A stretch of 64,000 bases of DNA from Escherichia coli (lineage in GTDB: Bacteria; Pseudomonadota; Gammaproteobacteria; Enterobacterales; Enterobacteriaceae), in assembly GCF_013122565.1 (NCBI RefSeq), contig NZ_CP053258.1, one strand, 5' to 3'. This document shows, piece by piece, positions 22,170-23,447 of the stretch. The notes under the pieces are model-generated. The model was not told the origin of the DNA. It did no database searches and saw only the letters and a list, made by a program, of their open reading frames with translations. How positions within the stretch are numbered: position 1 is the first letter of the stretch; each line of letters opens with the position of its first letter. The translations under genes were made by a program, and so were the position numbers.

Positions 22170-22343
22170 TCACATTATTTTGATTTTGACATCATAACTT
22201 TCAAGCCCGGTCATTTTTTCTCGTGCGGTGAAGCGAATTTCAGAGACTTCTTTCCCTGTATTCTTGTTCAGCTCGGCGATTTTTTGCGCGATAAAGTCGG
22301 CGATTTCCGTTTCGGCTTGTTTTTTTAACTCTTCAATATTCAC
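22170..22343 (-). CDS. gnsA: GnsA (multicopy suppressor of secG/fabA phenotypes)
   Basis: Hand translation of reverse strand from GTG 22343: (M)NIEELKKQAETEIADFIAQKIAELNKNTGKEVSEIRFTAREKMTGLESYDVKIKIM; below the ORF track size cutoff. Confidence 0.8.
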   Translation of the reverse strand: MNIEELKKQAETEIADFIAQKIAELNKNTGKEVSEIRFTAREKMTGLESYDVKIKIM

Positions 22344-22563
22344 TGTTAACCTCGTCTGGTCTTGAAAGACAGCAACACGCCAGTAAGGTGTTGGTTCCCG
22401 GTACCCTGGTCAGGTAAGAAATGTTATAAGCCATCTCCCCGAAAGATTCAATAATCAACAGGTTATCGCTTACTATACATACAGCGTTGAAGAAAAATAA
22501 GGCAGATATAAAAAAGGCTCCACGAGGGAGCCTGATATTATTTTGTGAAATCCAGCGGCGCAT
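22333..22563 (-). CDS. ymcE: Annotated small ORF YmcE; coding status doubtful
   Basis: MRRWISQNNIRLPRGAFFISALFFFNAVCIVSDNLLIIESF... matches remembered ymcE; overlaps gnsA start and contains the cspG terminator hairpin. Confidence 0.4.
   Translation of the reverse strand: MRRWISQNNIRLPRGAFFISALFFFNAVCIVSDNLLIIESFGEMAYNISYLTRVPGTNTLLACCCLSRPDEVNSEY
22505..22532 (-). terminator. Intrinsic terminator downstream of cspG (minus strand)
   Basis: On minus strand GGCUCC-CUCGU-GGAGCC hairpin followed by UUUUUUAUAU. Confidence 0.5.
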
Positions 22564-22736
22564 GGTCAGTGCGTATTTGCAGCGCGACGTTATCAAAGGT
22601 GATCATCGTCGATTTACAAAAAATACACTTAGCGCCCAAAGGGTTTCGCTCCGTCACATCGAATGCCGATGTACGGTACTGTGAACCATGACAATATGGA
22701 CAGCGGAAATGGAGATGTTGAGTAATAACGGCAACC

Positions 22737-22949
22737 TTAGAGCGTAACAACGTTCGCTGCCGCGGGGCCACGTTGCCCCTGCTCAATAGAAAATTCAACT
22801 TTCTGATTTTCGTTCAGCGTGCGGAATTCATTGCTCTGGATGGCGGTGAAATGGACGAAAACGTCTTTGCTGCCATCATCAGGAGTGATAAAGCCAAAAC
22901 CTTTATCTGCGTTAAACCATTTTACTAAACCAGTCATTTTATTAGACAT
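22737..22949 (-). CDS. cspG: Cold shock protein CspG
   Basis: 70 aa [38 protein letters not shown]... Confidence 0.95.
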
Positions 22950-23234
22950 ATTTTACTTCCTTCATTTTGGGCCTTTCGGCAAACAGGGCTTTAATACAGA
23001 AACTACTTAGTGTTCAGGAGAGAGACTCAAAAGAAGGGGATAATGCCTGATAATGAGAACTGCTTTAGTAAACTACTTTGTATGCTGTCTGTCTTTCAAA
23101 CCGACGCAGCTATTAACGCATGATAATTGAGATTAAGCAAATTTTATTTTAGCCGTCCGGCGGTCTTAAATATCGCTGGCTTTATTTTATTAACCCCGTA
23201 TAGTGCAGCGCAGTATTTTCAGTAAGGAATTTGT

Positions 23235-23447
23235 TTGTCCCGTAAAATGACAGGAATTGTCAAAACCTTTGATCGCAAAAGCGGCAAAGGATTCATTATC
23301 CCCTCCGACGGTCGTAAAGAAGTCCAGGTCCATATTTCCGCATTCACTCCCCGCGACGCAGAAGTGCTTATACCAGGATTACGCGTGGAATTTTGTCGCG
23401 TAAATGGCCTGCGAGGACCAACAGCGGCAAATGTTTATTTGTCTTGA
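23235..23447 (+). CDS. cspH: CspA-family protein CspH
   Basis: 70 aa (TTG start) [37 protein letters not shown]... Confidence 0.88.

Follow-up and report, generated by a model that had tools for sequence, protein, structure and literature searches.

We analysed a 64,000-nucleotide stretch of an Escherichia coli genome (contig NZ_CP053258.1 of assembly GCF_013122565.1), hereafter the window, and conclude that the annotated gene ymcE (sfa, b0991), a 76-codon, 231-bp open reading frame (ORF) on the minus strand (ATG at 22563, stop codon at 22335–22333), is probably a phantom gene, a frame open by chance in E. coli across a composite of ordinary non-coding control elements; we put the probability of this reading at roughly 85%. 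Read 5′ to 3′ on the minus strand, the 231-bp interval would consist of the last 26 nt of ymcF, a Rho-independent terminator ending the cold-shock cspG-ymcF transcript, a fast-evolving T-rich spacer at the place where related cassettes carry ynfN, a sigma-70 promoter (TTGAAT-17-TATAAC) starting gnsA transcription at 22415, and a 72-nt gnsA leader with a Shine-Dalgarno sequence, and cspG-ymcF and gnsA would form two transcription units arranged head to tail. None of the conserved features of the interval needs a YmcE protein, and ymcE is probably not translated into a functional product.

The terminator lies at 22533–22510 (minus strand) and consists of a hairpin with a 7-bp stem (AGGCTCC/GGAGCCT, five of the pairs being G-C) and a 5-nt loop (CTCGT) at 22533–22515, and a tract of six T residues at 22515–22510, the first of which closes the stem. 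With a free energy of −11.8 kcal/mol, the hairpin and its U6 tract occupy nucleotides 31–54 of ymcE, where an initial annotation, made by a model from the sequence alone, had placed them (~30–60 nt inside the frame). That annotation described a strong terminator of cspG, and our results differ in part. The hairpin does not directly follow cspG (22949–22737, minus strand; a 70-amino acid (aa) ORF in the RefSeq annotation and the first gene of the cold-shock operon), but begins 4 nt past the stop codon (TAA) of ymcF (22726–22538, minus strand, 62 codons), the second gene of the operon, which had been overlooked; because ymcF stands between cspG and the hairpin, the terminator ends a cspG-ymcF operon. 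Nor is its strength apparent from the sequence alone, as a scan returned three terminator-like sites against 1.7 ± 1.2 in shuffled sequences, which is not above chance, and the fold z-scores (−1.37 and −1.26) were not significant. As the sequence-only signal is not significant, the case for the terminator rests on its conservation and on published RNA 3′ ends, which together establish it as a real, intrinsic, Rho-independent terminator.

Term-seq of strain MG1655 (Adams et al. 2021, PMC7815308, supplementary files 1 and 3) maps RNA 3′ ends to 1051900 and 1051901 (plus strand), which by sequence are 22510 and 22509 in the window, the last U of the U-tract or the next base. The end at 1051901 was supported by 4,284 reads in lysogeny broth at an optical density of 0.4 and that at 1051900 by 10,359 reads in a second condition; the site, labelled “internal, ymcE”, is 54 nt past the start of ymcE and precedes gnsA by 166 nt. 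Its score as an intrinsic terminator is 8.09, where values of at least 3 denote intrinsic termination; its Rho score is 0.51, and no region of Rho termination is assigned to it (PMC7815308). A transcript entering from cspG would thus stop inside ymcE, as initially proposed, and would do so without Rho.

To follow the locus between species, we scanned for orthologues by GnsA alignment with one genome per species, which gave 15 loci: five Escherichia species representatives, eight Citrobacter and two Franconibacter, with the cspG-ymcF-…-gnsA synteny kept in the Escherichia and Citrobacter loci. A hairpin follows the ymcF stop codon by 4–9 nt in 14 of 14 orthologous loci and also follows the stop codon of the ymcF paralogue ynfQ in the Qin prophage, making 15 of 15; these hairpins have free energies of −10 to −15 kcal/mol and a U-tract is present in 14 of the 15. 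Among 11 distinct hairpin sequences, all 77 of 77 stem cells are standard pairs, with compensatory changes at stem pair 5 (T-A to T-G to C-G) and pair 1 (A-T to T-A), and eight different loops of 4–6 nt. The pairs were tabulated by script, as the MAFFT alignment, with loop lengths differing, misplaced the 5′ arms.

Downstream of the terminator, still within ymcE, lies a sigma-70-type promoter for gnsA, recognised from its sequence, its conservation and the start site mapped beside it: a −35 hexamer TTGAAT at 22451–22446, a 17-nt spacer and a −10 hexamer TATAAC at 22428–22423 (minus strand), matching the consensus at four and five of six positions, respectively. A simple promoter scan missed TATAAC, as it demands a T at the sixth position of the −10 hexamer. 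The Citrobacter loci possess TTGAAT, TTGAAA, TTGATT or TTGAGT and, again after 17 nt, TATAGA, TATAAA or TAAACA, the spacer itself being of unrelated sequence, and among seven Escherichia sequences a single substitution falls in the promoter stretch (22468–22406). We had predicted the promoter and its start from this conservation ahead of finding a dataset of transcription start sites (TSSs), in which Kim et al. 2012 (PLoS Genet, PMC3415461, supplementary file 2) list a TSS at 1051218 (plus strand, NC_000913.2) with 36 reads, assigned to b4517 (gnsA) with a 72-nt 5′ untranslated region (UTR). Its listed upstream sequence (…TTGAATCTTTCGGGGAGATGGCTTATAACATTTCTTA) holds the promoter element exactly, and its flanking sequence (TAACCTGTTGATTATTGAATCTTTCGGGGAGATGGCTTATAACATTTCTTA) places the TSS by sequence match at an A at 22415 (minus strand), 8 nt past the −10 hexamer, 72 nt before the gnsA GTG and at codon 50 of ymcE (PMC3415461). 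No TSS is entered for b0991 (ymcE) in the same file (PMC3415461), and the SMRT-Cappable-seq and Cappable-seq supplements held no entries for the locus. As its TSS is at codon 50 of ymcE, the gnsA promoter cannot express ymcE, and the suggestion of the initial annotation that gnsA is transcribed from a promoter of its own is borne out.

The gnsA 5′ UTR spans 22415–22344 (minus strand) with the Shine-Dalgarno sequence GAGG at 22353–22350, and gnsA itself (22343–22170, minus strand; 57 aa, Pfam PF08178) starts with a GTG at 22343–22341 that the ymcE stop overlaps by 11 nt, an overlap already seen in the initial annotation; orthologues are present in Citrobacter and Franconibacter. Before the gnsA start, the block CTTACTGGCG(Y)GTTG…GACCAGA(A/C)GAGG (22344–22390, minus strand) is conserved as far as Citrobacter and Franconibacter. 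For the stretch just ahead of the Shine-Dalgarno sequence we considered a CTGG…CCAG stem, for which Citrobacter and Qin seemed to offer compensatory changes, and dropped it: RNAalifold on 11 leaders returned a trivial 3-pair helix with no covariation, and the suspected pairs needed register shifts. The leader also holds an indel hot spot at a G-run (22405–22400, minus strand), with a 1-nt deletion in L005 and L006 and a 6-nt deletion in L002, and frameshifted or ymcE-gnsA fused ORF variants occur in public assemblies (P0007, P0016, P0024 and P0028). At the other end, a gnsA terminator hairpin (GAACATCACC..GGTGATGTTC) lies at approximately 22163–22137 (minus strand) between the convergent gnsA and yccM genes; Term-seq reports a “primary” gnsA 3′ end in MG1655 at 1052279 (plus strand) in three of three conditions (PMC7815308), for which the window coordinate is likewise approximate, owing to one extra C in the K-12 loop.

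Against this background of conserved control elements, ymcE itself has few attributes of a gene. The ymcE ATG sits 26 nt inside ymcF, within its last 26 nt and in a different frame, and has no Shine-Dalgarno sequence: the duplex with the anti-Shine-Dalgarno sequence is +0.7 kcal/mol for the ATG at 22563 and +0.3 kcal/mol for an alternative TTG at 22596, compared with −6.4, −4.0 and −6.6 kcal/mol for the neighbouring cspG, ymcF and gnsA. The ATG is a derived state, formed at a ymcF His codon CAT that is CAG or CATA elsewhere and CAG in most relatives. It is absent in four of the five other Escherichia species representatives (L002, L003 (E. albertii), L004 and L005), a 1-nt deletion at 22405 shifts the frame in L005 and L006 (E. 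whittamii), and in L002 the 6-nt deletion creates a TGA in frame, such that the ATG is lost or the frame broken in all five. Outside Escherichia, ymcE was undetectable in the orthologous loci save in one Citrobacter locus, where the gnsA leader is echoed at the nucleotide level, and none of the 10 Citrobacter and Franconibacter loci possesses a comparably long ORF abutting gnsA; a protein search found YmcE relatives in Escherichia and Shigella only, some of them truncated, frameshifted or fused as ymcE-gnsA. The hairpin and promoter are kept from Escherichia to Citrobacter, but the start and frame of ymcE are not kept even within Escherichia.

The substitution pattern is also neutral. Counting variable sites at codon positions 1/2/3 in the seven Escherichia sequences, cspG showed 5/3/23, the non-overlapping part of ymcF 3/1/17 and gnsA 6/0/15, whilst the ymcE-only segment (22540–22344, outside the ymcF and gnsA overlaps) showed 8/7/6. 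This differs from the 14/4/55 of its neighbours (binomial p = 8.5 × 10−6 for a third-position fraction of 0.75; Fisher p = 1.6 × 10−4) and fits a uniform distribution (p = 0.87). Where ymcF and ymcE overlap, the changes follow the ymcF frame, five of eight being at ymcF third positions. Within six E. coli genomes, ymcE accumulated six nonsynonymous and three synonymous changes, compared with 2 and 17 in cspG, ymcF and gnsA together. It is the mapped TSS and this evolutionary evidence, more than the position of the terminator, that support the initial proposal that ymcE is a non-coding region.

Several observations weigh against a phantom ymcE. Every entry sampled from the 5,414 E. coli genomes possessing the region has the 76-codon ORF complete and annotated, but as the region is at least 97% identical in nearly all of these genomes, this carries little weight as evidence. 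An ASKA ymcE clone gave a small rise in n-butanol tolerance. Translation through a terminator has a precedent in Qin, where ynfR spans a terminator confirmed by Term-seq and YnfR-SPA nevertheless appeared after cold shock, so the position of a terminator within an ORF does not settle the matter by itself. Neither ribosome-profiling nor proteomic data were found for ymcE in the supplements searched, which had no ymcE entry, and ymcE, ymcF and gnsA are mentioned neither in the text of the Weaver 2019 preprint nor in the Stringer 2021 supplement; GAFFISALFFFNAVCIVSDNLLIIESFGEMAYNISYLTR is an example of a tryptic peptide of YmcE. Finally, ymcE is modelled by Pfam (PF15939, “YmcE_antitoxin”) and NCBIfam (NF007379), and papers citing Wei et al. 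2015 list ymcE-gnsA as a type II toxin-antitoxin (TA) pair.

If the latter were correct, ymcE would encode a real 76-aa antitoxin of GnsA, and the overlap of its stop with the gnsA start would reflect translational coupling in one operon. The 11-nt overlap is typical of TA gene pairs, the frame is intact across E. coli and the database names agree, PF08178 being “GnsAB_toxin” and the RefSeq product a “GnsA/GnsB family addiction module toxin”. We nevertheless regard an antitoxin role as very improbable, as the ymcE start is separated from gnsA by a working terminator and the gnsA TSS lies inside ymcE; the two are therefore not co-transcribed from a shared upstream promoter. An essential antitoxin should also co-occur with its toxin, yet homologues of gnsA are found without ymcE in Citrobacter (eight loci), Franconibacter (two) and Qin (gnsB), and the sister Escherichia species that have lost the ymcE start or frame keep gnsA at 93–98% identity. 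The missing Shine-Dalgarno sequence and neutral substitutions count against an antitoxin in the same way. Crystal structures in the PDB contain GnsA alone (4XO1 and 4XO2) and no YmcE chain, which is absence of evidence only, and in the literature covered, which did not include Wei 2015, we found no primary experiment showing that YmcE neutralises GnsA. The suppression originally ascribed to multicopy sfa/ymcE is now attributed to gnsA and gnsB, going by ASKA gnsA and gnsB clones and by Sugai 2001 in the form in which it is cited.

The precedent of ynfR raises a second alternative, that ymcE is a proto-gene: an ORF of recent origin, confined to E. coli, with no function or an incipient one, of which read-through transcripts of cspG-ymcF would allow some weak translation, mainly in the cold. 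In Qin, ynfR (L017, 1689–1754, minus strand) reads across the cspI-ynfQ terminator, whose Term-seq 3′ end at 1638226 (minus strand) falls 27 nt into ynfR, yet YnfR-SPA was strongly up after cold shock; its induction despite the terminator is apparent read-through or antitermination. The derived state of the ymcE ATG would fit a young ORF, and RefSeq labels YmcE homologues “cold-shock protein”. The two cases differ, however, in that the ynfR ATG, 2 nt past the ynfQ stop, permits re-initiation, whereas the ymcE ATG, inside ymcF in another frame and lacking a Shine-Dalgarno sequence, would be occluded by ribosomes translating ymcF. With no signature of selection in ymcE and no translation data found for it, we consider such a proto-gene unlikely. 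Under the phantom-gene reading, the cold induction reported for “ymcE” probably reflects the 3′ end of cspG-ymcF.

A further alternative concerns the terminator and is compatible with a non-coding ymcE. The hairpin could be mainly a conditional attenuator, at which antitermination by the CspA family in the cold carries cspG-ymcF transcription into gnsA, with the internal promoter supplying basal expression only; GnsA, and with it the control of membrane unsaturated fatty acids, would thereby be coupled to cold shock. The order csp, ymcF-like gene, terminator, (ynfN), gns recurs in the chromosome, in Citrobacter and in Qin, suggesting a functional cassette, and the appearance of YnfR after cold shock implies read-through in the paralogue. 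Proteins of the CspA family are known to act as transcription antiterminators, and overexpressing gnsA increases unsaturated fatty acids and rescues growth defects at low temperature. On the other side, the mapped gnsA promoter accounts for downstream coverage at 37 °C, gnsA persists in Franconibacter with neither cspG nor ymcF upstream, and one E. coli strain has IS4 in their place; we therefore hold the attenuator to be doubtful. Distinctly unlikely, in our estimation, is a fuller version in which the whole csp, ymcF-like, terminator, gns cassette is a cold-gated unit, where Csp-mediated antitermination in the cold would carry both transcription and ribosomes across the hairpin, adding cold induction of gnsA and lineage-specific peptides from terminator-spanning ORFs, YnfR in Qin and YmcE in E. 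coli. If true, YmcE would be a gene born de novo within E. coli from terminator-plus-promoter DNA.

Between the terminator and the promoter, the T-rich spacer (22509–22452, minus strand) is the fastest-evolving part of “ymcE”, with 14 of the 21 ymcE-only substitutions clustered at 22508–22469. In five Citrobacter loci (L007–L009, L011 and L012), the space from the terminator to the gnsA promoter holds a 75-aa ORF with 78% identity to K-12 YnfN, and in Qin the gene order is cspI-ynfQ-ynfR-ynfN-gnsB (E. coli K-12 b1552–b1550). The chromosomal locus of Escherichia looks like the same cassette without ynfN, with “ymcE” spanning the resulting junction, and the spacer probably marks the loss of a ynfN-like gene. 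As for K-12 ynfN, annotated with 51 aa, the DNA upstream of it (ATGAAAAAAATCATAGTTTTTTTAAC…, L017 1611–1690, minus strand) resembles the N-terminus MKKVIVFFN of the 75-aa Citrobacter homologues; judged from this resemblance, a frameshift appears to have cut off the 5′ end of K-12 ynfN.

The 3′ end of ymcF and the terminator also resemble a small RNA (sRNA) candidate of Salmonella. The Rfam family STnc220 (RF02077) aligns end to end with 22580–22500 (minus strand), at a score of 34.1 bits compared with a gathering score of 60 (E = 3 × 10−4 in a 461-nt search), which by the Rfam rule does not make it a member of the family. The STnc220 consensus …GAUUUUAGAAAAUAA reads D-F-R-K-stop, as does the C-terminus of Citrobacter YmcF, and then runs into a terminator; because it encodes a YmcF-like C-terminus and stop, the STnc220 “sRNA” seems to be the 3′ end of an mRNA resembling that of ymcF.

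The wider region corresponds to E. coli yccM/gnsA/ymcE/ymcF/cspG/cspH and shares 99.7% identity with complete E. coli genomes annotated in this way. The cspA thermoregulator of Rfam matches over 22683–23105, in the cspG region, with 158 bits compared with a gathering score of 78; no other Rfam family exceeded its threshold in the region, and no tRNA or tmRNA was found there. Term-seq also detected an ORF-internal 3′ end in cspG (MG1655 1051591, window ~22819, minus strand; 6,780 reads), 130 nt from the start codon. The ymcF gene encodes a small CxxC protein (RefSeq “cold shock small protein YmcF”; Pfam PF23641, E = 8 × 10−49) with 71–97% identity across Escherichia and Citrobacter. Its annotated ATT start (22724–22726, minus strand), a very rare initiation codon in E. 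coli, lies 10 nt past the cspG stop behind a weak Shine-Dalgarno sequence (TAAGG, −4.0 kcal/mol), with a GTT 3 nt upstream. Codon 11 of ymcF in the window strain (22695, minus strand) is TAT (Tyr), compared with TGT (Cys) in six of six other Escherichia sequences compared, which turns the motif from CPCC into CPYC and keeps the outer CxxC cysteines.

Two kinds of rearrangement were also seen at or near the locus. At 23235–24775, cspH (plus strand) abuts appA (minus strand) with a 13-nt overlap, without the gfcABCDE-etp-etk group-4 capsule cluster and IS1 that part them in K-12; the C-terminus of appA is altered in the window (…PACALHQDK), and the junction is found with at least 80% query coverage in 1,675 of 5,426 complete E. 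coli genomes. In E. coli 2022S01-140-18 (L022, 1–1400), IS4 lies upstream and the match begins only at nucleotide 34 of ymcE, with no cspG or ymcF annotated and gnsA still downstream. A rearrangement like that of L022 is also suggested for Shigella, in which ORFs whose N-terminus is foreign occur (P0013, 135 contigs).

Biologically the interval is ordinary: between two small transcription units lie a single terminator, promoter and leader, and little of this is new, since the terminator, the TSS and the reassignment to gnsA can each be found in public sources. What the case offers is a correction of annotation: RefSeq MG1655 still lists ymcE as a coding sequence (CDS), the NCBIfam and Pfam (“YmcE_antitoxin”) models spread it, it is treated as a protein in TA catalogues and dynamic models, in AlphaFold-based fold-switching predictions and in interpretations of differential expression, and its annotation also leads to the label “addiction module toxin” for gnsA. 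Such errors would disappear if ymcE were reclassified as a phantom ORF and its place in the annotation taken by the cspG-ymcF terminator and the gnsA promoter. The case is also a caution that little can be concluded from a frame left intact in thousands of genomes of a single species if the DNA is constrained for other reasons.

Known systems help to place the locus. The Qin prophage likewise possesses a csp gene followed by a 62-aa CxxC gene (ynfQ, the ymcF paralogue), a GGCUCC-type hairpin and U-tract directly past its stop codon, an annotated small ORF around the hairpin (ynfR, as ymcE in the chromosome), a gns gene downstream and a similar TTGATTATTG… upstream element, and Term-seq 3′ ends are found at both terminators. 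It differs in that ynfN is kept between the terminator and gnsB, and in ynfR itself: a frame of 21 codons beginning 2 nt past the ynfQ stop, it ends short of gnsB and was seen, when tagged, to be expressed in the cold, whereas ymcE has 76 codons, starts inside ymcF and spans the gnsA promoter and leader. Type II TA operons resemble ymcE-gnsA in having two small, adjacent ORFs on the same strand with a stop/start overlap, the downstream product being called a toxin in databases; however, ymcE and gnsA have no shared promoter, the terminator and the TSS of the “toxin” lie inside the “antitoxin”, the pair is not found together outside Escherichia and purifying selection does not act on the “antitoxin”. 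The phantom genes of EcoCyc (61 listed) share with ymcE an early annotation from sequence and a multicopy phenotype later given to a neighbouring gene, and ymcE, like them, lacks conservation, a ribosome-binding site and coding-type evolution; it differs from them in that it is still an ordinary CDS in RefSeq MG1655 (“protein YmcE”), with Pfam and NCBIfam models of its own.

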